Virus record (IMG/VR): IMGVR_UViG_2534681774_000020
Span: 1-11,326 of that record
Length of the DNA: 11,326 nt
DNA from: a virus
Lineage: Duplodnaviria; Heunggongvirae; Uroviricota; Caudoviricetes
Direction: 5' to 3' (one strand)
Part shown: in pieces, positions 1 to 11,326 of the stretch
Layout: each line of letters opens with the position of its first letter
Numbering within the stretch: position 1 is the first letter of the stretch
Position numbers and translations under genes: made by a program
Notes under the pieces: model-generated
Databases searched by the model: none
Told to the model about the DNA's origin: nothing
The model's input: the letters and a program-made list of their open reading frames with translations, nothing else

Positions 1-445
1 CTTCAAAGAAGCGCTGTTCTTCTTCAAGATCACCTACGATTTGAGAAAAAACCCTATTTTTAAGGCTTTTCTTTATGATTTTGTCGTATTTTTTTAGCAA
101 TTGTTCACGTGTAAATGTACGTGTTGTTGTAGCGCTTTGCACAACGACATGCGTGCTTTGATTGGTGTCCTCAATGATGAATGGGATCGGAGAATATACA
201 GACTCAACAATGTTCGACGCTTTGCCGTCGGCATCGCGGCACATGTCAACGAAGGCTTTCCATTCAGCAAGACATTTTTCAGCTTCTTCTAATATGTTTT
301 GGTCATGCGTTAATGCAACATGGCGGAATTCCTCGCCAGCATAACTGGTATCATGGAAAACAGAGTTTGCGACCACCAGCTCTTTCCACCGTTCAGCGGT
401 TTGCAGGAACCGTTTGTACTCTTTCTCGATCGACTTCTTACTCAT
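1..445 (-). CDS. Partial CDS running off the window start (at least 148 aa in window, C-terminus missing); hypothetical protein, divergent from dre. N-terminus MSKKSIEKEYKRFLQTAERWKELVVANSVFHDTSYAGEEF...
   Basis: Manual translation of the minus strand from ATG (rc of cat at 443-445) is stop-free to position 1 with balanced composition. AGGA lies just upstream of the ATG. Absent from the ORF track, presumably because no in-window stop. Function not recognised. Confidence 0.6.
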   Translation of the reverse strand, partial: MSKKSIEKEYKRFLQTAERWKELVVANSVFHDTSYAGEEFRHVALTHDQNILEEAEKCLAEWKAFVDMCRDADGKASNIVESVYSPIPFIIEDTNQSTHVVVQSATTTRTFTREQLLKKYDKIIKKSLKNRVFSQIVGDLEEEQRFFE

Positions 446-654
446 TATTCCTACTCGATTTAGTTTTCTAACATAAAATTACTATGACAAATTTATGTCG
501 AATAACAGAGTGAGTAAAGGATCGAACTGTGATTTTTTGTCATCAATTTTAGAAAACCAACCGTAGAAACCACACTTCGCAAATTAAAGACCATGAAGGC
601 AACGTGTTACTGGTCATCATCAATCTATGATGGATTAAAAAAATCGGCATTTTA

Positions 655-686
655 TAACTTTAAATAATTGGCATTATTTAAAGTTA
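655..686. other. rox: rox-type site-specific recombination target: 14-bp perfect inverted arms around a 4-bp core, TAACTTTAAATAAT-TGGC-ATTATTTAAAGTTA
   Basis: Perfect inverted repeat seen directly. It is the reverse complement of the rox site of phage D6 as I recall it (TAACTTTAAATAATGCCAATTATTTAAAGTTA). Lies about 150 bp upstream of the Cre-family recombinase gene, the same arrangement as loxP and cre in P1. Confidence 0.85.
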
Positions 687-695
687 GGCTATAAT
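668..695 (+). promoter_or_regulatory. Putative sigma70 promoter for dre: -35 TTGGCA (668-673) inside the rox site, 16-bp spacer, -10 TATAAT (690-695)
   Basis: Hexamers read directly; perfect -10 and 5/6 -35 with 16-bp spacing. The overlap with the recombination site suggests autoregulation. Not experimentally anchored. Confidence 0.35.
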
Positions 696-838
696 CATGG
701 GTAGATGATCAGTATTGACATCACTCAAAATACGCGCCTCGAATCAAAGGCTTGAATCTTGAAAATTAACTTATAGCTACCCTGTCATTTTTATATTTTT
801 CGCGTAGCGTCATCTGTATATAGAGGTTAAATAGTTTC

Positions 839-1867
839 ATGAGTGAATTAATTATCTCTGGCAGTTCCGGTGGTTTTCTGCGCAACATTGGCAAAGAGTA
901 CCAGGAAGCCGCAGAAAACTTTATGCGGTTCATGAATGACCAGGGAGCTTATGCGCCGAATACTCTGCGCGACCTCCGTTTGGTGTTTCATTCCTGGGCG
1001 CGCTGGTGTCACGCTCGCCAGCTTGCCTGGTTTCCGATCTCACCAGAAATGGCCCGCGAGTATTTTCTTCAGCTGCATGATGCCGATCTGGCTTCGACCA
1101 CCATTGATAAGCACTACGCCATGCTGAACATGCTGCTTTCGCATTGTGGCCTTCCGCCACTTTCGGATGATAAAAGTGTTTCTCTGGCTATGCGGCGCAT
1201 CCGGCGCGAAGCGGCAACTGAAAAAGGCGAACGAACAGGCCAGGCTATACCGCTGCGGTGGGACGATCTGAAACTGCTCGACGTCCTGTTGTCCAGGTCA
1301 GAACGGCTGGTGGACCTGCGCAACCGGGCTTTTCTCTTTGTTGCATACAATACGCTGATGCGTATGTCGGAAATCTCGCGTATTCGTGTAGGAGATCTGG
1401 ACCAAACAGGTGACACTGTCACGCTACATATTTCACACACGAAGACAATAACGACCGCCGCCGGGCTTGATAAGGTGCTTTCCCGTCGCACTACCGCTGT
1501 GCTGAATGACTGGCTGGATGTTTCCGGGCTTCGCGAACATCCTGACGCAGTGCTGTTCCCGCCGATACACCGTAGCAATAAGGCCAGGATCACGACAACG
1601 CCCCTTACTGCACCTGCAATGGAGAAAATATTCAGCGACGCCTGGGTGTTGCTGAATAAAAGAGATGCTACGCCAAACAAAGGAAGATACCGGACGTGGA
1701 CCGGGCATAGTGCACGCGTCGGGGCCGCTATTGATATGGCTGAAAAGCAGGTGTCTATGGTGGAGATCATGCAGGAAGGAACCTGGAAGAAACCGGAAAC
1801 ACTTATGCGGTATCTTCGCCGTGGCGGCGTGTCTGTGGGGGCTAATAGCCGCCTGATGGATTCGTAA
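839..1867 (+). CDS. dre: Cre-family tyrosine site-specific recombinase, recognised as Dre (D6-type, rox-specific)
   Basis: 342-aa ORF whose N-terminus (MSELIISGSSGGFLRNIGKEYQEAAENFMRFMNDQGAYAPNTL) matches Dre as I remember it. Alignable to P1 Cre along its length (e.g. LAFLFVAYNTLMRMSEISRIRVGDL vs Cre LAFLGIAYNTLLRIAEIARIRVKDI; WTGHSARVGAAIDMA vs WSGHSARVGAARDMA). Exact rox site upstream. Confidence 0.95.
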   Translation: MSELIISGSSGGFLRNIGKEYQEAAENFMRFMNDQGAYAPNTLRDLRLVFHSWARWCHARQLAWFPISPEMAREYFLQLHDADLASTTIDKHYAMLNMLLSHCGLPPLSDDKSVSLAMRRIRREAATEKGERTGQAIPLRWDDLKLLDVLLSRSERLVDLRNRAFLFVAYNTLMRMSEISRIRVGDLDQTGDTVTLHISHTKTITTAAGLDKVLSRRTTAVLNDWLDVSGLREHPDAVLFPPIHRSNKARITTTPLTAPAMEKIFSDAWVLLNKRDATPNKGRYRTWTGHSARVGAAIDMAEKQVSMVEIMQEGTWKKPETLMRYLRRGGVSVGANSRLMDS

Positions 1868-1940
1868 ATTAAATTTCTAACACATCTTTTTAGATTAACG
1901 CCTTTGCTGTAAAGTACCCTCGCCTATTTAGGAGGGTGCT

Positions 1941-2285
1941 TTGCAGAGTAAAATCACGGAATCAAGACGCTTCAAGGTGGATGGTTACACCGTAACCTTC
2001 GCCGCTGGTGTTAAGAACAGTCATGCTGTCGTTGTGTTCGGCATCATGACCGGGCTTGAGGCCGTCCCTGTGTTTACCCTCGAAAAAAACTGGCGAAATC
2101 TGGAGGAAGCAGAAAGCTACGTCCGGAAAGTAACCATCATTGCCGCCGAAAAACTCCTGGCCCACTATCAGGAAAATTATCGCACTATGGTCGAGAAGAT
2201 TAATCTCGCTTTCACTCGCCCCACTACCGGCTTTATTGCACCGGATACTAATGCAGGTCGCTATCCTGCAAGGGGGCGTCGGTGA
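1941..2285 (+). CDS. Hypothetical protein, 114 aa, TTG start
   Basis: ORF with a strong Shine-Dalgarno GGAGGG at 1931-1936, 4 nt before the TTG start. First gene of the operon after dre. No recognisable motifs. Confidence 0.55.
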   Translation: MQSKITESRRFKVDGYTVTFAAGVKNSHAVVVFGIMTGLEAVPVFTLEKNWRNLEEAESYVRKVTIIAAEKLLAHYQENYRTMVEKINLAFTRPTTGFIAPDTNAGRYPARGRR

Positions 2286-2758
2286 AGACTTATTACACAT
2301 CTCTGAATTGTTACCCGTCTTCCTATCCAGAATTGTCCGGGAAGCTGTTAGCTCTATTAGCTAAAGCACCTACGGAATGGTTTAAGCCAGTCATTATCAA
2401 TCCACACTTCCTGGATTACGGATCTGTTCGCACTCGTAACGAACTCAAAAACCTACTGGCGCATGGATTCATTCGACACCGTGCCGGGAAAGGCTATCAG
2501 TTAGCGATTGCGCCAGAAGAGGCCGTGCGGCTATTCGCATATCGTGACAGCCAGACAAAAGCTCGGGTAATAGCTCAAATACTTCATAACGGCAGCACCT
2601 ATGCCCGCCAGTTTGGTGGCGACACGTCGCAGTTCTTGCGGGCGGTGCGATCGCTGGAGGAGCAAGGAGTTATTGAAAGTTCCTGTCTTCCTGTTCCTAC
2701 CGTTCCACATATCAAACGTCGGGTTTACACCTTCACGCAGAGAGCTAAAAAACAATGA
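2282..2758 (+). CDS. Hypothetical protein, 158 aa, possible winged-helix DNA-binding fold (inference)
   Basis: GTG start overlaps the upstream stop (GTGA at 2282-2285), with AGGGGG Shine-Dalgarno 5 nt upstream. The C-terminal segment ...SQFLRAVRSLEEQGVIES resembles a recognition helix plus wing. Function inferred only. Confidence 0.6.
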   Translation: MKTYYTSLNCYPSSYPELSGKLLALLAKAPTEWFKPVIINPHFLDYGSVRTRNELKNLLAHGFIRHRAGKGYQLAIAPEEAVRLFAYRDSQTKARVIAQILHNGSTYARQFGGDTSQFLRAVRSLEEQGVIESSCLPVPTVPHIKRRVYTFTQRAKKQ

Positions 2759-3249
2759 TTTACGTAAAAGTGAAACGCCTACATCCGGCAGCAAAACTTC
2801 CAGCTTATGCCACCTCCGGATCGGCGGCGATGGATTTTGAGGCTGTTGAAATAAAACCATGTGTCGATAGCAATGGTGCAATTTCCTCAAGCTGGTGGGT
2901 GTACACCGGACTGGCTATGGAGATCCCGCCCGGCTGGTGTCTAAAACTCTATCCGCGTTCCGGATTGGGCTGCAAAAAACATACTCGCCTGGCTAACTGC
3001 GTAGGAATTATCGACTCCGATTATCGCGGTGAAATCATGGCAAAACTGATTACTGATCCCGGCGGGGAAGGCGTTTGTCTCAAGCCTGGAATGGCTGTCA
3101 TGCAAGGAATTTTTGAGCGTGTTGAACAAGTCTCACTAGTCGAGGTTGAGGAACTCAACGAAACGGAACGTGGTGCCGGTGGCTTTGGTAGCACATCGGA
3201 AGACCGCGTTGAAATCAAGCGTACACCGCTTCAGTACGCAAAGTTTTAA
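2755..3249 (+). CDS. dut: dUTP diphosphatase (trimeric dUTPase)
   Basis: ATGA start/stop overlap with the upstream gene. Canonical dUTPase motifs are present: PRSGLG (motif II), GIIDSDYRGE (motif III), RGAGGFGSTS (motif V), and an AAMDFEA motif-I-like segment. Confidence 0.9.
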   Translation: MIYVKVKRLHPAAKLPAYATSGSAAMDFEAVEIKPCVDSNGAISSSWWVYTGLAMEIPPGWCLKLYPRSGLGCKKHTRLANCVGIIDSDYRGEIMAKLITDPGGEGVCLKPGMAVMQGIFERVEQVSLVEVEELNETERGAGGFGSTSEDRVEIKRTPLQYAKF

Positions 3250-3263
3250 GTAGAGGAAGGATT

Positions 3264-3926
3264 ATGGTCAGCACTTTTCAGGTGTTCCCCAAATACAAAT
3301 GCCACAGCATCATTCGGGCATCGAAAATCAAAGATATTGTTATTGTCGGCAAAGCTTATGCGCCCATTTTTGGCAGTATCGAAGTCGTTGAGCCAAAAGG
3401 AATGACGCTTCGTGTTGATGGTGTGTTCTTGGAAAAATTCCGACCGCAAATAGGAGGATATCTCGTCACTGCTGAAAATGGCTATCTGGTCTATGTGCCA
3501 GAGAAAGCATTTGAAAAATGCTATAGCCGGGTTAACGACGCCTCCGAAAATGGGGTATCGCTCAGCATTGAAGGTCACAATGGGGTGACATTCATTACAG
3601 CCAGGGACGTAACTATTTCTGCTGGCGGTATCGCTACTCTACAAGAAGAAATCGACCTTGAAGCAGCCGACTTTTCTGACGCGCTGATGTGGCTGAAGGA
3701 TGGCAAGAAAGTTGCCCGGCGCGGGTGGAACGGCGAAAACCAATTCTGCTGGCTGGTTCCTGAAGGACAGTACCCGGCACGAATGGAAGCCATTAAGGGA
3801 TATTTCCCCGGCGATCTCGTTCCGTATGGTGCTTATTTCGCCTTAAAAAATGCACAAGGTGTAGTTGTTCCGTGGTTGCCTTCTGTAGGCGACTTACTGG
3901 CATGTGACTGGTTTGTAGTGGAGTGA
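3264..3926 (+). CDS. Two-domain protein, 220 aa: unknown N-terminal domain (about 135 aa) fused to a C-terminal DUF2829 (Tad2-like) domain
   Basis: Strong Shine-Dalgarno (GAGGAAGGA) before the ATG. The C-terminal 85 aa (ALMWLKDGKKVARRGWNGENQFCWLVPEG...VPWLPSVGDLLACDWFVVE) carries the DUF2829 hallmarks as I recall them (GKK..RRGWNG, VPW, DLLA.DW..VE). Domain assignment is from memory. Confidence 0.75.
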   Translation: MVSTFQVFPKYKCHSIIRASKIKDIVIVGKAYAPIFGSIEVVEPKGMTLRVDGVFLEKFRPQIGGYLVTAENGYLVYVPEKAFEKCYSRVNDASENGVSLSIEGHNGVTFITARDVTISAGGIATLQEEIDLEAADFSDALMWLKDGKKVARRGWNGENQFCWLVPEGQYPARMEAIKGYFPGDLVPYGAYFALKNAQGVVVPWLPSVGDLLACDWFVVE

Positions 3927-3932
3927 TTTAAC

Positions 3933-4733
3933 GTGGAAAATACTAAAGCAATTCAATACCGCTTGCGTAATGGCCTGCTGGTGGCTGTTAACGCCGACAT
4001 GTCACTGCCGTTTGACACGATTGAACGTACTATCATGACGTATCTCGGCTTTAATGAAGAGCTGAATGAAGAGCATGGCGTAGCTATATGGAGTGATGCA
4101 GAAAGCGGCGTTCATCGTTACATCACCGCCAGGGGCAAAGACTACTCTCTGGAAGAACTGTTTACCCTTGCACAGTCTTTCGAATGTGTAGCATTAGACA
4201 TGTTTAATGATCCTGCTATAGCGCAACGACTTATACGCGAGCTTGGGCTATCCGTTACACCAATTATCTTTAAGAATGGCAGCCTGACTGGCACATGGCG
4301 CGTAGAACGCATCTCAAACTACCTTCCATATAACCGACAGTTAAATGGAGTAATCTCCGGCGTTAATCAGCCCGTAGCGTGTGAAAATGTAAACCTGGTT
4401 GCCGCTGTTTTGGCAACCGCATGTCGTGTTATCGGTTTGGCTAAACAGGCATTTATTCATTTCCCAAATGGTGCAGAAGGTAGCGCAGAGATTATCGCGT
4501 GTGATTTCGAATTTACCTGGATGCTACGCGAATATCTGGACCAAACAGTATTCCGTGCCGAAGAACTGGATATGTATATCACGTCAACGATTCCAGACGA
4601 TGTGCGAGCTGAAGCAATCGCTACAGCCAGGGCGAAATGCCGTGCGGCGATTGCAGAGCAGGCCAAAGAAGAACCGTCCGATGAAGCCGTGGCTGATGTT
4701 GAAGCAGAGGTAGCGGAGGATGCTGACGCCTAA
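3933..4733 (+). CDS. Hypothetical protein, 266 aa, with a poly-acidic C-terminal tail (EEPSDEAVADVEAEVAEDADA)
   Basis: GTG start 7 nt after the upstream stop, with GGAG 9 nt upstream. Last gene of the plus-strand cargo operon, followed by an intrinsic terminator. No recognisable catalytic motifs. Confidence 0.7.
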   Translation: MENTKAIQYRLRNGLLVAVNADMSLPFDTIERTIMTYLGFNEELNEEHGVAIWSDAESGVHRYITARGKDYSLEELFTLAQSFECVALDMFNDPAIAQRLIRELGLSVTPIIFKNGSLTGTWRVERISNYLPYNRQLNGVISGVNQPVACENVNLVAAVLATACRVIGLAKQAFIHFPNGAEGSAEIIACDFEFTWMLREYLDQTVFRAEELDMYITSTIPDDVRAEAIATARAKCRAAIAEQAKEEPSDEAVADVEAEVAEDADA

Positions 4734-4788
4734 AAACATCACCGAATTAGCTGGCTGACAGCAGAAAAAATCATTGAGTGATAGTAGG

Positions 4789-4818
4789 AAGCCCGCCTGG
4801 TTGAGCGGGCTTCTTTTC
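4789..4818. terminator. Rho-independent terminator (8-bp GC-rich stem AAGCCCGC/GCGGGCTT, 8-nt loop, then CTTTTC) between the convergent cargo operon and doc
   Basis: Hairpin and T-tract read directly. Positioned 56 bp after the stop of the 266-aa gene and overlapping the doc stop codon. The T-run is short, so it is probably stronger for the plus-strand transcript. Confidence 0.55.
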
Positions 4819-5197
4819 AAATATTGGAACCAAATAATTCACGTAGTTTTTCCGCTACTGAAGATACGGGGATTTCACCAGTTGCGGCCCCCACCGCAAG
4901 TTCCACCAGCACGGGAGAATCATATACCTGTATACCGTTACGGCGTAGAAATAGCAGCGCACTGTTTAGCGCGGTACGCTTATTGGCATCATTGAATATA
5001 TGCCCTCTCGCAGTAGCCACCAGGTAGGTTGCGGAGACTTCGAAAAGGTCGGTAATCTCTTCGTACACAACTCTGGCCTGGACTCTCCCGATAATGGCCT
5101 CTGCCCTGCCCGGATCTGACATGCCAGGCAGGCCGCCGTAGCGGTTTATATTCGCATCATGAAGCGCAATAAGTTCTTCCGGTGATATATGCCTCAT
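4817..5197 (-). CDS. doc: Doc toxin (death on curing; Fic-family protein) of the P1-type phd-doc addiction module
   Basis: 126-aa ORF that matches P1 Doc as I recall it ([22 protein letters not shown]...). Its ATG overlaps the phd stop by 1 nt (TAATG), as in P1. Confidence 0.95.
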
Positions 5198-5418
5198 TAT
5201 CGGTTAACCAGTTCCTTGTTGGTGGAGTCCAGGGTGTCAAACAGGGATGCAAATTCAGCATCCAGCGCCGCTTTTTTGTAGGCTTCGAAAGTAGCCTTGC
5301 TGACAATTACTGCTGGCTCACGGCCTCTGCGGGTGATTTCAACCTCTTCCCCGGCTTCAACATTGTTGAGCACTTCAGAAAGGTTGCCACGCGCGGTACG
5401 GAAGTTAATGGATTGCAT
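5197..5418 (-). CDS. phd: Phd antitoxin (prevent host death), 73 aa
   Basis: Sequence [73 protein letters not shown] matches P1 Phd from memory. The true start is the ATG at 5416-5418 (GAGG 6 nt upstream), not the GTG used in the ORF track. Confidence 0.95.
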
Positions 5419-5426
5419 AAACACCT

Positions 5427-5450
5427 CGTGTACTCGTTATGTGTACACAA
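5427..5450. promoter_or_regulatory. phd-doc operator: two Phd-binding palindromes (GTGTACTC imperfect at 5428-5435, TGTGTACACA perfect at 5440-5449) just upstream of phd
   Basis: Palindromes read directly. They match the GTGTACAC-type subsites described for the P1 phd-doc autoregulated promoter (established knowledge, recalled from the literature). Confidence 0.6.
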
Positions 5451-5490
5451 CTATAAACTTCACAGGCATAAAGCACCAGCACTTTGCAGC

Positions 5491-5880
5491 TTAAATAACC
5501 GGACAATCATCAAATTCCCCACTTCGGGCATCATTGATGACATGAGTGATCACACCAAAAACAGCATTACTGCCCGTGTATCCATCGTCATCTACTGGTA
5601 ACGCCTCTTTCTTCCCGGTGCTTAAATCCTCCAGGTGCTGGCGCGGATACTTCCTGTATCTCTTTATGCGATATTCACCCTCCATAGCGCACACAAGCAG
5701 AGAACCCTCAACCGGAGTAAGCGAGGAATCAACCACCAGCAAAGCACCCTGCAATATTCCCTCACGGTGATGGCTATCAGCTGCCCGCATGAAGTAGGTT
5801 GCTGATGGATGCCTGATTAGTTGCTGATCAAGAGAAATTCGGCTTTCAACATAATCCGCCGCAGGAGAAGGGAAGCCCAT
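5491..5880 (-). CDS. humD: HumD, UmuD'-like translesion-synthesis accessory protein (S24 peptidase fold, pre-processed form)
   Basis: 129-aa ORF beginning [12 protein letters not shown]...HPSATYF, which aligns with E. coli UmuD from the Cys24-Gly25 cleavage site onward (UmuD: [29 protein letters not shown]). Same humD-phd-doc neighbourhood as in P1. Confidence 0.9.
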   Translation of the reverse strand: [129 protein letters not shown]

Positions 5881-5898
5881 AGCGTTTTACCTCAATGA

Positions 5899-5918
5899 TA
5901 CTGTTTATTCATACAGCA
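5899..5918. promoter_or_regulatory. LexA (SOS) box TACTGTTTATTCATACAGCA upstream of humD
   Basis: CTGT-N8-ACAG architecture, 16/20 match to the consensus TACTGTATATATATACAGTA. Lies 19-38 bp upstream of the humD start codon. Confidence 0.6.
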
Positions 5919-6003
5919 TACATTGAAAAGGCATAGTTTGTGAAAGCGGGGTTTGTAGGCGCGCCACGCTGGGGGCTAATCACATTTCTCCCCCATCTTG
6001 CCG

Positions 6004-6255
6004 TTATTTTTTTGGTGCATCCTCGTTCTGATACACCGGATCGCTCCCTTTTGGCAACTGGAGGCTTAACTGCCGGTAGTGCCGTAGCCGTTCCATGAAA
6101 TAGGCGCGCAGGTTTTCCGGTTGCTCACGGGCCACCTGCTCTGCAATCACAGGTATATTCAGCCGTTCTTTGTAAGCAACGCCGCTGGCGGCAAGGTCTA
6201 CGTTCACCTTGTCTCGCTCTTCCTGGCTTTTAGCTGCTATATTTCGATCTGACAC
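6004..6255 (-). CDS. Hypothetical protein, 83 aa (GTG start), function unknown
   Basis: ORF with a GGAGG Shine-Dalgarno 6 nt upstream of the GTG start. Hydrophilic, protein-like composition. Sits immediately upstream of the humD promoter region. Not recognised. Confidence 0.55.
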
Positions 6256-6287
6256 AAGAAACCTCCAGGAGTTAGTGGATCAGGCAC

Positions 6288-6638
6288 ATGCACAATAACG
6301 TTCTCAATGTTAGCCGTTCAATTCAGACAATCAGAGACTGCACCAGTGTGGTGGCATCAATCCCATTGCGAAACAGCATAGACGAACTGCAAATTCGTGT
6401 ATTGAATCCGAATCAGGCTAATAAGCAATTGCGCTTTATTTTGACGCTGAAAAGTGAAACAGAGGGGATAAAGCACAGCGTAAAAGTGTTTTCTGAGGCC
6501 ATTCTGCTTAATGGGAAGCTCCGGCATCTGATAAGGCCAGAACGTCAATATCCTGACGTCCTGGCGCGTGAAAAAGACCTTCTTTCTGAAGTTCAGGATA
6601 GGGTGATCGATTTCGTCAAATGCTATCCCCTGCATTGA
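6288..6638 (+). CDS. Hypothetical protein, 116 aa; coding strand uncertain
   Basis: The plus-strand ORF has a purine-rich sense strand and a balanced charged composition. The antisense ORF 6357-6635 is Phe/Tyr/Gln-rich and looks like a shadow frame. Weak Shine-Dalgarno; overlaps the 3' end of the convergent gene at 6623-6907 by 16 bp. Confidence 0.4.
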   Translation: MHNNVLNVSRSIQTIRDCTSVVASIPLRNSIDELQIRVLNPNQANKQLRFILTLKSETEGIKHSVKVFSEAILLNGKLRHLIRPERQYPDVLAREKDLLSEVQDRVIDFVKCYPLH

Positions 6639-6907
6639 GGGCAGGTGTTCCCTTCCGCAAAGTAGGGAAAACTGCTATCAAGTTCATCACACCATCTGCG
6701 ATGGTCGTAGCACCAAAACGCCTCCCACGGTGCACGGAAATACTTCATCCACCAGGACACTCGATCAGGTATATCTGCTGGTGGCAGTTCTTCTGGCAAT
6801 AATTTGCCTGATAATTCCCTTTCCGCCCGCGACAGCATTTTTTTGAGGCTCGCGTTCTCTTTTTCAAGCTCATCTACGCGCACCTGTAATTCAGCTTTCG
6901 TTGGCAT
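6623..6907 (-). CDS. Hypothetical protein, about 94 aa: N-terminal coiled-coil-like segment and C-terminal Cys/His cluster (CYDHRRWC...CPQC)
   Basis: Internal ATG at 6905-6907 preceded by GAGG (5 nt); overlaps the end of the 538-aa gene by 17 nt, consistent with coupling. The longer ORF-track version (from 6988) would lie entirely inside the upstream gene in another frame. Confidence 0.5.
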   Translation of the reverse strand: MPTKAELQVRVDELEKENASLKKMLSRAERELSGKLLPEELPPADIPDRVSWWMKYFRAPWEAFWCYDHRRWCDELDSSFPYFAEGNTCPQCRG

Positions 6908-8507
6908 GGTCCGCCTCATGCTTTTCAGCCACCAGCGGCAATAAAGCCCTGGCCATCTTATGAACCAATAGTGCATCAATAATGCCAAGCGTATGCCCCG
7001 GCTTAATGTTTAATGCCGCCTCAAGGTGACACCTTTCCAGGCCACTTTTCTCGGCTTGTTTATGATGATCTGGTGTAATAACGTCGCCCAAAACACGGCT
7101 AATTCTTTCTCGTAATTGCTGGGTGCCAGCACACTTGATCGCTGTATCGTGGAGACGGTTAACCAGTTCGCGATAAACATGCGGCTTAATTCGGATACGT
7201 TCACCGGTGACGCCCTTTCCTGGTGCTGGCACCGAACTATCCGGAATATCCGGATAGTTGCCTGCCAGTCTACGCAAAACGGCCTTAACAGCCTCAATAC
7301 GGTCATCATCGCAATTTTCCAGCGTATCTATGCGATCGAGCATGATGATGGCGTTATCAATATCAGGATTGCCGGTCCACTCATTACCGCGATTGGATTC
7401 GGCAGCCTGGTTGCCGCGTACTGGTTGATTATCGGCTTTACCCAGTCTGTCGTTGCTGCATGAATGCCCTTCCAGCAAGGCCAATGCTTGTCGCATGAAA
7501 TACGCAATATGTTTGCCGTGGTAATCGTCTTCATCGATGTGAAAAGCGATACTGCGGATGTATTCAATTGCGTTTTCAATGGCCTCCGGCGTTATCGGCG
7601 CTGACATATTTTGATTTTGGAGTGCCAAGACGCGACTGGCATCCTCAACGTTCTTCACTGCATCTGCGCAGTAGTTATAGCGATTGCATTCCACTAACTT
7701 CTGCTTGAGATTTTCAATTGCTTGCGCGACATCAGCCTGTATTTCCGGAACTGGCGGAACGGCTGTCTGCTGCTCTCGAACGTCATTAGTCGCTATCGGT
7801 TCTGCTGCCAACTGACTGGCATATTTGTTAATGGTAACGATAAGCTCTTGCTCGGCCTCATCCAGACAATCACCGATACCTCGCCTGTCACCGTCAAAAT
7901 CATCGAAATCGGCACGAATCTTGGCAACCTTCTGGATTGCGGACAACACCTCACTAGGAATTACCGGATAGTTGGTTGACGTTTCCGCGATTTCCCGAAA
8001 ATTATTGGTTGACGAATTCTTGTTTTCCCGAAAGTTTCCGGACTGAAGCATGGCGGCGCGGCAGGCGTTCCATATTTCGGCAGCAATATCGCGCTCGCTA
8101 TCGGTTAATTTGTACGTGGAAACATAGCCAGAGAGCATTTCTACGTTTTCCGGAGTTGCTTCTTCCGGCACTACCGGCGCTGGCGGGGCGATGCGTCCAA
8201 GCAACTTATTTACCTCTTTCGCCATCGCGTCATATTTATCTAAATGGCGATTAGCTTCTAAGCAGACTCGGCGCATCTGATCTGAGTTAACTCGTTTAAC
8301 TGGATCTGCTCCCAGTGATGCCAGTGCAATTCGTGCCAGCTCACGCACAACTTCAGGGGGCGCGTGACGGTCATTCAGGTCATCCCACAGACGTAGCATG
8401 TTATCGCTATCAGGGTTAACATCCTCATTAGTTCCGGTCAGCGCACTAATAACCTCATCGGCTGCTTCAATAATTTTCTGCGCCTGTTCTCTGGTAATAG
8501 TGGTCAT
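6891..8507 (-). CDS. Large acidic hypothetical protein, 538 aa, no recognisable catalytic motifs
   Basis: Long clean ORF starting 10 nt after the stop of the 87-aa gene, with GGAG 8 nt before the ATG. Asp/Glu-rich; no Walker A, DEAD/helicase, nuclease or reverse transcriptase motifs seen by eye. Confidence 0.8.
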   Translation of the reverse strand: MTTITREQAQKIIEAADEVISALTGTNEDVNPDSDNMLRLWDDLNDRHAPPEVVRELARIALASLGADPVKRVNSDQMRRVCLEANRHLDKYDAMAKEVNKLLGRIAPPAPVVPEEATPENVEMLSGYVSTYKLTDSERDIAAEIWNACRAAMLQSGNFRENKNSSTNNFREIAETSTNYPVIPSEVLSAIQKVAKIRADFDDFDGDRRGIGDCLDEAEQELIVTINKYASQLAAEPIATNDVREQQTAVPPVPEIQADVAQAIENLKQKLVECNRYNYCADAVKNVEDASRVLALQNQNMSAPITPEAIENAIEYIRSIAFHIDEDDYHGKHIAYFMRQALALLEGHSCSNDRLGKADNQPVRGNQAAESNRGNEWTGNPDIDNAIIMLDRIDTLENCDDDRIEAVKAVLRRLAGNYPDIPDSSVPAPGKGVTGERIRIKPHVYRELVNRLHDTAIKCAGTQQLRERISRVLGDVITPDHHKQAEKSGLERCHLEAALNIKPGHTLGIIDALLVHKMARALLPLVAEKHEADHANES

Positions 8508-8517
8508 GTGTTACTCC

Positions 8518-8781
8518 TTAACCCGCAGTGCTTTCAACTGATGAGGGGAACAAAATCCTTTCATCAAATCCGGCATTCATATCATGGACAGCAACACACC
8601 AATCCATCGACGAACGATTATCAAGAGCCTCCATGATTTCATCCATGCGGCGCAGGTCATACAGGTAAATGCTTTTATCGCCAATGGTGTAAAAACCAAT
8701 TTTTTTCGGTGATGGGCAGCGATCAAGAACGTCCTGTAATTCGTTCAACCATGCCTGTTCTTTTTTTGTCAAAGTTGCCAT
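8518..8781 (-). CDS. Hypothetical protein, 87 aa (MATLTKKEQAWLNELQDVLDRCPSPKK...)
   Basis: ATG at 8779-8781 preceded by AAGGA (7 nt spacer). The ORF-track version extends to a GTG at 8916 with no Shine-Dalgarno and would overlap a better-supported small ORF in another frame. Confidence 0.55.
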   Translation of the reverse strand: MATLTKKEQAWLNELQDVLDRCPSPKKIGFYTIGDKSIYLYDLRRMDEIMEALDNRSSMDWCVAVHDMNAGFDERILFPSSVESTAG

Positions 8782-8795
8782 ATCAGTTTTCCTTA

Positions 8796-8975
8796 TTAAT
8801 GCGACAGTGGTTTTTCCAGCGGTTTTTGCGCCGCGCTGGGCTTTTTGCAAAAACCACAATCCATCATCCCGTAATATTTCATCAACCCCATCCGTCGGTT
8901 GCTGAGTCTCACCCACTGCCAGACGCCAGGAGCGTTTCTACGAACTAACAGAATCTTTGCTTTACGGTTTTTCAT
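8796..8975 (-). CDS. Unannotated small basic protein, 59 aa (MKNRKAKILLVRRNAPGVWQWVRLSNRRMGLMKYYGMMDCGFCKKPSAAQKPLEKPLSH); paralog of the ORF immediately upstream
   Basis: Manual translation. Its ATG overlaps the stop of the upstream 59-aa ORF (ATGA at 8972-8975). It stops 14 nt before the Shine-Dalgarno/ATG of the 87-aa gene. N-terminus is conserved with its neighbour. One residue below the ORF-track cutoff. Confidence 0.35.
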   Translation of the reverse strand: MKNRKAKILLVRRNAPGVWQWVRLSNRRMGLMKYYGMMDCGFCKKPSAAQKPLEKPLSH

Positions 8976-9151
8976 CTTACTGCGTACCCTTTCTTCCGCC
9001 TGTTCTGTGACGCAGTAGGCTTACGCTTTGCGGCAAAAGCCACCTGACCAAATAATGGATGGATTACCGCTATCTTATGGTTGCTAATAACCAGCTCCAC
9101 CACACGCACAGGCCGCTGTAAAAAAAGTCGTTTTGCCTTACGGTTTTTCAT
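8972..9151 (-). CDS. Unannotated small basic protein, 59 aa (MKNRKAKRLFLQRPVRVVELVISNHKIAVIHPLFGQVAFAAKRKPTASQNRRKKGYAVR)
   Basis: Manual translation. AGGAGA Shine-Dalgarno 8 nt upstream of the ATG. Shares the MKNRKAK-[RI]-L-[FL]-[LV]-[QR]-R N-terminus with the downstream paralog; the nucleotide repeat TTACGGTTTTTCATC marks both starts (8961-8975 and 9139-9153). Confidence 0.35.
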   Translation of the reverse strand: MKNRKAKRLFLQRPVRVVELVISNHKIAVIHPLFGQVAFAAKRKPTASQNRRKKGYAVR

Positions 9152-9243
9152 CGCTTTGCTCTCCTGCGTCTCTTTGCTGCTCGTCGTGCCGCTGCAATAC
9201 CGGTATGGCGGCGCTTTGGTGCCGGGATGATGTTGTCAGCCAT
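9148..9243 (-). CDS. Possible arginine-rich micro-ORF, 31 aa (MADNIIPAPKRRHTGIAAARRAAKRRRRAKR)
   Basis: Its stop overlaps the start of the next ORF (ATGA at 9148-9151). No convincing Shine-Dalgarno. Could instead be untranslated leader sequence. Confidence 0.2.
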   Translation of the reverse strand: MADNIIPAPKRRHTGIAAARRAAKRRRRAKR

Positions 9244-9323
9244 CAGGACATGTGGCTTTGCAATTAGCGCAGAAGCCCAAAAACGAGTCGGGTACGGTAA
9301 CAAGCCGATACATGCCACACGCA

Positions 9324-9812
9324 TTACTCACCTCCTTTGATGCGAATGCCTGTTGCAATGCTGTTTATGATGCTGTCAGTGCATGGGGTAGAAAGCTGGG
9401 CATCTCCAGCAATTTTCATGACCTCAACATCTGCATATCGAATACCGAGGTGTATCAGACCGGCTATGCCTGACTTAAGCCGAGCATTTTCCATAAATAG
9501 AACTTTTGCCCGCTGTTTTTCTGCTTCAAGCTCAACGCGCAGCTTCCCTACCGTTAGCGCAATATCCTCGTTCTCCTGATCGCGGCTTTTGATGTATTGC
9601 AGGTTTCTTTCCCGTTCATCCAGCAGTGCCAGCACGGTTTCTGGTCCGGTCAGAAATTTGAAGGCGTTGAGCGCATCAATATCCACACCGTAATCTTTAA
9701 GTTCCTGTTCACTTAACAAGTCATCATCAGCTGGCAACATTAACAGGCGTTCCATTGCTGGAATTGCACGTTCCGCCACCTCACGCAGTGCCTGGTAATT
9801 AATTTCGCTCAC
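9324..9812 (-). CDS. Hypothetical protein, 162 aa, reminiscent of Ead/Ea22-like early-region proteins of lambdoid phages
   Basis: GTG start overlapping the upstream stop (GTGA at 9809-9812). N-terminus MSEINYQALREVAERA... and an ALLDERE coiled-coil segment resemble Ea22-like proteins from memory. Low-confidence family call. Confidence 0.65.
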   Translation of the reverse strand: MSEINYQALREVAERAIPAMERLLMLPADDDLLSEQELKDYGVDIDALNAFKFLTGPETVLALLDERERNLQYIKSRDQENEDIALTVGKLRVELEAEKQRAKVLFMENARLKSGIAGLIHLGIRYADVEVMKIAGDAQLSTPCTDSIINSIATGIRIKGGE

Positions 9813-10315
9813 TGGTTGCCTCCTTTGCGAAGCTGGGCAGCAAAGTCAACTAACCACTCAGTCATTTCAACCTTCCCTACCAGGTCTGAACCAGGGTACA
9901 TACAGCAATCACTCTGCGCCGCTTTGAAATCCTTATACTCATATTCTTGGGCCACCAGATTTTTTGCAGCTTCTATAGCAGCATCCACCCCCTGCGCCCG
10001 GACTTCAGCCAGGAAAGCATCAGTGGTTGGCGTTTCAGGTATCTGTCTCCTCATCCGTTCTATTGCATGATTGAACCCGAAGTCTTCCGCGAGAGATACG
10101 TCATCCATATTGTCATTGTCATCTTCAATATCCCGTGATTCTGGAATTGCAGACTTTATTCCCGCATTCTCCGCTGCCAGCGCCGCGCACTTGGCCTCAA
10201 GAGCGGCAACCACTTCCTGATGGTCTTTGTACTTAACGTATGAGCCGGAGATGTCATCACCTTCGGTGTTTAGCCATGCGTCATTGCAATTCACTGCGTA
10301 GGTTCTGATGCTCAT
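9809..10315 (-). CDS. Hypothetical protein, 168 aa (MSIRTYAVNCNDAWLNTEGDD...), first gene of the coupled minus-strand operon
   Basis: ATG at 10313-10315 preceded by GGGAGAG (7 nt spacer). The ORF-track extension to 10372 reads through into the IS21-family end and lacks a Shine-Dalgarno. Confidence 0.7.
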   Translation of the reverse strand: MSIRTYAVNCNDAWLNTEGDDISGSYVKYKDHQEVVAALEAKCAALAAENAGIKSAIPESRDIEDDNDNMDDVSLAEDFGFNHAIERMRRQIPETPTTDAFLAEVRAQGVDAAIEAAKNLVAQEYEYKDFKAAQSDCCMYPGSDLVGKVEMTEWLVDFAAQLRKGGNQ

Positions 10316-10384
10316 GTTGATGCTCTCCCGCCCCTGACAGACGCCAGGCCAGTCAATAAAGTATCCGCACAATGCCTACCCTCA

Positions 10385-11326
<942 letters not shown>

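Follow-up and report, generated by a model that had tools for sequence, protein, structure and literature searches.

Backbone genes and inserted cargo, including a predicted Tad2 immune-signal sponge, in a conserved operon downstream of dre in D6-type phage-plasmids

For the viral sequence IMGVR_UViG_2534681774_000020 (positions 1–11,326 of the IMG/VR record; hereafter the window, 11,326 nucleotides in length), which represents a D6-type phage-plasmid, we analyzed a cluster of five genes that is located downstream of the Dre recombinase gene. The explanation that we consider probable is that this conserved operon combines a backbone (a c8-family gene, ORF2, and isaA) with inserted cargo (a dUTPase gene and a Tad2 fusion gene), and acts through the mechanism proposed below. 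Comparisons among related elements indicate that the operon is a composite in two layers, not one five-gene system. The Tad2 domain in the product of ORF4 is the only solid evidence for an anti-defense function in this operon.

Gene organization of the operon

The five open reading frames (ORFs) are all located on the plus strand, where the initial annotation had placed them. These include ORF1 (D6 orf117; 1941–2285; TTG start, 114 amino acids (aa)), ORF2 (D6 orf116; 2282–2758; GTG start, 158 aa), dut or ORF3 (D6 orf115; 2755–3249; 164 aa), ORF4 (D6 orf114, DUF2829; 3264–3926; 220 aa), and isaA or ORF5 (D6 orf113; 3933–4733; GTG start, 266 aa). ORF1 starts 73 nucleotides (nt) past the dre stop codon, and the first two junctions of the operon are overlaps (GTGA at 2282–2285 for ORF1/ORF2 and ATGA at 2755–2758 for ORF2/dut). 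An intrinsic terminator at 4787–4818 on the plus strand, with a hairpin at 4787–4814 followed by a U-run (z = -2.9 against shuffled sequences), is positioned between the isaA stop codon and the convergent gene doc and closes the operon. The five-gene block, the overlaps, and the terminator were all reported in the initial annotation and all found in the sequence. The gaps, which had been given as 4 to 14 base pairs, measure 14 nt (dut–ORF4) and 6 nt (ORF4–isaA).

The gene block was already on record in phage D6. The RefSeq entry (NC_050154; annotation of Gilcrease & Casjens, 2018) has matching gene calls from orf117 to orf113, including orf115 as dut and orf113 as "similar to P1 isaA", and orf2, orf3, and dut had been entered in an immC record of 2004. 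The same five genes are present in D6 in the same order, at 97.6% nucleotide identity in the part that both have, and the D6 block likewise follows dre and converges on doc/phd. However, ORF4 of D6 encodes only 146 aa (aa 17–90 of the N-terminal domain are deleted) and a pdcA-like gene is located between isaA and doc, whereas ORF4 in the window encodes 220 aa and pdcA is absent. The presence of Tad2 in D6- and P1-like elements has also been reported (bioRxiv 10.1101/2025.09.12.675607). The earlier statement that the operon is not a described system is therefore valid only in the sense that the genes form no single system. Within the sources searched, the c8 assignment of ORF1, the partition into backbone and cargo, and the exchange between dut and a methyltransferase gene appear to be new, as do the mosaic Tad2 alleles, the variable slots flanking isaA, and the candidate D6 operator.

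Conservation and variation across the D6 and P1 lineages

In PLSDB, 116 plasmids are dre-positive, and at least 80% of the block is found in 112 plasmids (about 97%). The most divergent dre-positive plasmid, from Shigella dysenteriae (80.6% identity in dre), has all five genes with the order kept, and a Klebsiella element has all five genes plus one added gene before the c8-like gene. The element from Enterobacter hormaechei (L012) contains c8-like and ORF2-like genes, a methyltransferase gene, a Tad2 fusion gene, an HNH-like gene, and isaA. In this element, an orphan N6/N4 DNA methyltransferase gene (PF01555, 1.3e-32; 2711–3868) replaces dut, and the HNH-like gene (169 aa; phrog_374 at 2e-13; 4495–5004) is located between the Tad2 fusion gene and isaA. 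Finally, a distant element (L017) with a recombinase that is 45% identical to Dre has only the c8-like, ORF2-like, and IsaA-like genes, and lacks both dut and Tad2. The trio in L017 and the replacement in Enterobacter show that the c8-like gene, ORF2, and isaA form the backbone, and that the cargo inserted between ORF2 and isaA comprises the enzyme slot and Tad2.

A scan of IMG/VR by local tblastn provided 80 loci that encode IsaA, including 33 of D6 type and 45 of P1 type; a separate scan of genome contigs provided two P1-type loci only. ORF1, ORF2, and Dut are present in all 33 D6-type loci. The Tad2 gene is absent in two of them (with a gap of 26 nt between dut and isaA) and otherwise occurs in at least eight length or allele variants. 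The spacing after isaA in these loci is about 90 nt (as in the window), about 250 nt (with pdcA, as in D6), or about 1100 nt (with a 364-aa gene). The product of the 364-aa gene (phrog_5902; L007 9853–10947, also in L027, L031, L033, and others) shares about 37% identity with a portion of the terminase subunit PacB, and the gene is present or absent right after isaA, with about 11 of the 33 D6-type and about 14 of the 45 P1-type loci having it. In the P1-type loci, isaA follows ssb, and a Tad2 fusion gene is found in 20, none in 23, and an atypical spacing in two. These counts agree with the published frequencies of Tad2 AcrIIA7 (anti-Thoeris) of 93% in D6-like and 56% in P1-like elements (bioRxiv 10.1101/2025.09.12.675607). 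Based on the variation mapped in these loci, the variable part is the neighborhood of isaA in both lineages. P1 isaB was considered as a possible remnant of the 364-aa gene and rejected, as the two are unrelated.

The initial annotation had placed the operon in a hypervariable slot. Within the D6 lineage, this is contradicted by the presence of the block in 112 plasmids versus 116 that are dre-positive and by its retention at 80.6% dre identity; ORF1–ORF2–dut is invariant in the D6-like elements of E. coli, Salmonella, and Shigella, and gene content changes in the two slots on either side of isaA and between genera. In the P1/D6 supergroup as a whole, the slot does vary, with res/mod and ref in P1, Lar, Ref, and another Tad2 fusion in Cronobacter phage JK004, and the methyltransferase in Enterobacter. 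The order of P1 genes after cre, which had been described as starting with cra and ref, required correction, since cra precedes cre in P1 and c8 directly follows it. In JK004 (L019; record positions 41045–46529), cre and c8 are followed by a Lar restriction-alleviation gene, ref, and a Tad2 gene with a different architecture, in which a Tad2 domain at the N-terminus is joined to a crAss001_48 domain at the C-terminus. The gene after this Tad2 fusion (gene_49) was examined as an IsaA homolog and rejected.

These patterns are relevant to the hypothesis that all five genes form one dedicated anti-defense island or system in a hypervariable cargo slot after the recombinase gene, which we regard as quite improbable. 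The Tad2 domain of ORF4 is compatible with such an island, as are the methyltransferase and HNH-like genes in the Enterobacter operon, the Lar gene and Tad2 fusion after cre–c8 in JK004 together with res/mod at this place in P1, and the position of the P1-type Tad2–isaA pair adjoining the dar/ddr anti-restriction genes. However, ORF1 is a c8 homolog, and ORF1, ORF2, and Dut are invariant in the D6-type loci and in about 97% of the dre-positive plasmids. Moreover, L017 has the c8-like, winged-helix, and isaA genes without Tad2 or dut, and P1 itself and about half of the P1-type loci have isaA but no Tad2. PADLOC, which models defense and not anti-defense, had no match for any of the five proteins, and no anti-defense signature was found with Pfam, NCBIfam, PHROG, or PADLOC in the four proteins besides ORF4. 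The view of the operon as anti-defense cargo is thus retained for the Tad2 domain of ORF4, whereas ORF1, a homolog of P1 c8, and ORF2, a conserved gene of the lineage, are assigned to the backbone. For the dUTPase and for the acidic tail of IsaA, a connection to counter-defense had been suggested, but no evidence of one was found.

The Tad2 domain and N-terminal fusion of ORF4

The C-terminal part of ORF4 (3654–3926, plus strand; aa 131–220) matches the DUF2829 family in Pfam (PF11195; 2.1e-22, 79.9 bits with a gathering threshold of 25; aa 136–219). This match identifies the domain, described earlier as sponge-like, as a genuine member of the Tad2 family. Among the proteins in PDB, ModTad2 (8V3E/9EIB) is the best match (8e-21, 45% identity over the whole 88-aa domain), and AcrIIA7/HgmTad2, SptTad2, and SPO1 Tad2 were matched at lower scores (range among the PDB Tad2 proteins, 8e-21 to 3e-9). 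In terms of bit scores, ModTad2 is the nearest characterized relative (77, versus 49 or lower for the others). ModTad2 is a sponge for His-ADPR, the signal of type II Thoeris (bioRxiv 10.1101/2024.01.03.573942). ORF4 also contains the segment following strand beta2 by which ModTad2 differs from SPO1 Tad2, and the GWNG and W-x2-S-x2-D motifs are kept. Unlike the stand-alone ModTad2 of 88 aa, the Tad2 domain of ORF4 makes up the C-terminal 40% of a predicted fusion protein of 220 aa. SPO1 Tad2 (gp34.65; PDB 8SME), a sponge for the type I Thoeris signal gcADPR, has the same Pfam domain but is more distant (40 bits), and ORF4 has a longer, ModTad2-like insert. The five residues of SPO1 Tad2 that contact gcADPR (W25, N26, W73, S76, and D79) are all kept in ORF4 as W155, N156, W204, S207, and D210, which correspond to W25, N26, W74, S77, and D80 in domain numbering (a one-residue offset). 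Taken together, ORF4 is predicted to encode an immune-signal sponge.

Alternatively, the DUF2829 domain of ORF4 may not be a Thoeris sponge, but an AcrIIA7-like anti-CRISPR, a sponge for the cyclic nucleotides of CBASS, or a domain with a role outside of defense. Some of its PDB relatives were deposited as AcrIIA7 or "Inhibitor of Type II CRISPR-Cas system", binding of cyclic dinucleotide signals by Tad2 homologs has been found as well (a separate study, as cited in bioRxiv 10.1101/2024.01.03.573942), and a paralog in these plasmids is named "MW1434 family type I TA system toxin" by NCBI. However, ModTad2 is the closest characterized relative by a wide margin, and the paper that described the discovery of Tad2 argues for an anti-Thoeris and against an anti-CRISPR role of DUF2829 proteins. 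We therefore consider this alternative unlikely. The paralog with the toxin name is a second Tad2-domain fusion in D6-type elements (191 aa; PF11195 at aa 103–190, with E-values from 1e-9 to 7e-11). It corresponds to D6 orf6 (L015 5054–5629; L006 147–722) and is located upstream of lpa/pacA, outside of the window.

Tad2 proteins are typically stand-alone and about 90 aa in length, whereas the Tad2 domain in ORF4 is preceded by a beta-rich N-terminal domain plus linker of 130 aa (3264–3653, plus strand; aa 1–130). This N-terminal domain was seen only in fusion with PF11195, in phage-plasmids of Enterobacteriaceae. The only lead for its function is a local similarity of 41 residues (aa 57–97) to Dec, the decoration protein of phage L (E-value 9e-4; 4e-4 with a profile). 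The AlphaFold2 (AF2) model of this domain, based on a 25-sequence alignment, has a pLDDT of 41 and is unusable.

Among the D6-type IMG/VR loci, the alleles of the ORF4 N-terminal domain (50–100% identity) and those of the Tad2 domain (63, 74, and 99–100%) assort independently. Three alleles exist for the central part of the Tad2 domain, and the one in the window is nearest to ModTad2 (77 bits, versus 51 and 41). In the third, a sister allele in other plasmids, GWNG is changed to EWKG. This pattern would fit a diversification of ligand specificity.

IsaA as a neighbor of variable cargo

ORF5 is identified as IsaA by its similarity to the P1 protein (47% identity across 262 aa, E-value 2e-87) and to phrog_2326 (1e-135). 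Among 1.84 billion proteins, this tiny family has 31 representatives, and it is confined to P1/D6-type elements. In P1, isaA is non-essential and dispensable for lytic growth (PMC10695390). The AF2 model of IsaA is confident (pLDDT 88) except for the acidic tail, which is disordered (about aa 245–266). Structural comparison of this model found no informative neighbor, and the fold gives no functional clue.

One possibility is that the Tad2 fusion and IsaA constitute a two-gene module that moves as a unit between the ssb and dre operons, with IsaA as a partner or a second anti-defense protein. The Tad2 fusion gene is located directly upstream of isaA, with a gap of 6–10 nt, in 20 of the 45 P1-type and 31 of the 33 D6-type loci; both genes are accessory, and the small and confined IsaA family and its non-essential nature in P1 are also compatible with a module. 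In Salmonella phage SJ46, gp048 encodes a Tad2 fusion that is 81% identical to that in the window and is immediately followed by isaA, although this pair is located in the ssb operon beside hxr/ddr/dar genes and not after a recombinase gene. However, isaA is often found without Tad2, and in L017 without both Tad2 and dut. Furthermore, another gene is located between the Tad2 fusion gene and isaA in Enterobacter, and the fold of IsaA points to no function. Judging from its frequent occurrence without Tad2 and its presence in L017, isaA behaves as an anchor gene beside an insertion slot rather than an obligate partner, and the two-gene module appears rather doubtful.

A further, speculative idea that we consider to have a low probability is that isaA marks an anti-defense hotspot shared by P1 and D6, with mosaic Tad2 fusions in the upstream slot and other cargo, such as the PacB-like 364-aa gene, in the downstream slot, and that IsaA and/or the Dec-like N-terminal domain are new counter-defense components. 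If true, N-domain and ligand-pocket segments would recombine independently and generate differing signal specificities, and IsaA or the Dec-like domain could, for instance, target the sponge to the capsid so that it is co-injected, similar to the delivery of Dar proteins.

P1 isaA (L005 570–1532) and SJ46 gp048 (L004 7794–8639) share a leader of about 55 in-frame codons that follows ssb (FHEKNTPRYC.RWWENIPD...). Since homologs begin at a later Met, the annotations of P1 IsaA and SJ46 gp048 are probably over-extended at the 5' end.

The c8-family gene, ORF2, and the dUTPase gene

ORF1 is assigned to the P1 C8 family based on profile searches, in which ORF1 (8.4e-48) and P1 C8 (6.4e-53) matched the same PHROG (phrog_1968). 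An ORF1 profile built from five sequences also matched the C8 homolog of JK004 (hhalign probability 96%, E-value 1.8e-9), which is 51% identical to P1 C8, and P1 C8 itself (79%, 1.7e-5). The position of the gene is likewise shared, because the ORF1/c8 gene is the first one past the Cre-family recombinase gene in both the D6 and the P1 lineages. P1 differs in that it lacks ORF2 and the Tad2 fusion, has ref, mat, and res/mod after c8, and has isaA after ssb and not near cre. P1 c8 carries only the annotation "establishment of lysogeny, putative", and the lytic growth of P1 does not require it (PMC10695390).

ORF2 has no match in Pfam or NCBIfam, but matches phrog_6669 (8.7e-98). Its lineage-restricted family consists of only nine clusters among 5.8 billion proteins. 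The sequence has two similar stretches that resemble a helix plus wing, and the profile matches in PDB have E-values of 0.3 or worse. The distant homolog in L017 (hhalign 90.6%, 1.3e-6) matches Pfam MarR_2 at 2.3e-5 and 24.9 bits, below the threshold of 27. A double winged-helix protein is thus plausible for ORF2, but not established.

ORF3 is identified as a trimeric-type dUTPase, in agreement with the initial annotation. It exceeds the cut-offs of the curated equivalog model NF001862 in NCBIfam (2e-35; 121.6 versus 103 bits) and of TIGR00576 (119.1 versus 102.55 bits), and matches PF00692 and dUTPases in PDB (down to 2e-25). The sequence contains motifs I (AAMDF), II (PRSG), III (GIIDSDYRGE), and V (RGAGGFGST). 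In motif IV, GMAVMQ replaces the usual GERIAQ (G-x-R-I-A-Q), with Ala where the aligned PDB enzymes carry Arg, and this Ala is invariant among the D6-type Dut proteins of E. coli, Shigella, and Klebsiella. In the Klebsiella protein, motifs I and II are separated by an additional insert of 17 aa. No connection of phage dUTPases to anti-defense was found in a search of the literature.

Candidate operator and proposed mechanism

An operator-like motif (AAATTAAATTTCTAACACATCTTTT) is present at 1866–1890 on the plus strand, between the dre stop codon (1867) and the start of ORF1, and is a candidate operator for the D6 C1 repressor. The motif, in the form AAATTAGTTTTCTAACACA with a core of TTTCTAA[AC]A and conserved flanks, has 14 copies in the D6 genome, compared to 1.8 expected from shuffled sequences. 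This D6-specific motif of 17–19 nt is thus about eight-fold enriched, and its copies are mostly intergenic, including those upstream of c1, ref, hrdC, pdcB, pmgS, and orf52. The window has further copies in the c1–dre intergenic region (457–481 and 539–563). Elements from Shigella, E. marmotae, and Klebsiella all keep the copy before the ORF1 homolog; that of Klebsiella is located after the extra gene. The operator consensus of P1 C1 was absent, even when three mismatches were allowed. In P1-type phages, a C1 operator is annotated for the ssb operon, in which the Tad2–isaA pair is located. By analogy with the dispersed C1 operators of P1, we infer that the operon is under repressor control and expressed early.

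Under the favored explanation of backbone plus cargo, the D6-type C1 operator would keep the operon silent in the plasmid prophage and allow it to be turned on early after infection or induction. The Tad2 domain would then form its usual oligomer, which in this family is a homotetramer with pockets between the subunits, and sequester the Thoeris signal made by the TIR protein, such that the ThsA effector would never be triggered. Given that ModTad2 is the closest characterized relative, the likeliest signal is the His-ADPR of type II Thoeris. The dUTPase may keep dUTP low during replication, while c8 and ORF2 may act in the lysis–lysogeny decision and not in counter-defense.

Several points weigh against this explanation. 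The candidate operator was identified from motif statistics and position only, and a promoter scan between dre and ORF1 found no sigma-70 site. The role of c8 in establishing lysogeny is a putative annotation even in P1, the winged-helix call for ORF2 depends on the sub-threshold MarR_2 match of its distant homolog, and the dUTPase is without the motif IV arginine. For ORF4, the ligand specificity cannot be read from the sequence because the pocket residues are common to Tad2 proteins with differing ligands, and the atypical N-terminal extension of 130 aa could change oligomerization.

Pathogenic E. coli, Shigella, and Salmonella commonly harbor phage-plasmids of the D6 and P1 types, whose establishment in new hosts is probably aided by a Thoeris sponge. 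The present analysis separates the counter-defense gene from the backbone genes and cautions against reading the whole operon as one system.

Genomic context of the window

The window has 96.9% identity to Escherichia phage D6 across 57% of its length, and the operon region is 99.3% identical to non-mobilizable E. coli plasmids of about 90 kb. Upstream of the operon, dre is located at 839–1867 and is preceded by the rox site, a perfect inverted repeat at 655–686. The sole strong sigma-70-like site within 600–5500 (TTGGCA-16-TATAAT, 11/12 matches) is located at 655–695, where it overlaps the rox inverted repeat upstream of dre. Downstream, doc (4817–5197, with its stop codon at 4817) is convergent with the operon, and phd and humD follow beyond it, also convergent. 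An Rfam search of the window found no match. The limited alignment to D6 is partly explained by a pmgU-like ORF on the minus strand (6891–8507), which encodes 538 aa in the window versus 360 aa in D6. Finally, the right end of the window (10385–11326) contains an ORF on the minus strand (10444–11226) for the IS21-family helper ATPase IstB of IS100, which is 99.9% identical to copies from Yersinia pestis phages and plasmids and marks an IS insertion beside Ea22-like genes.

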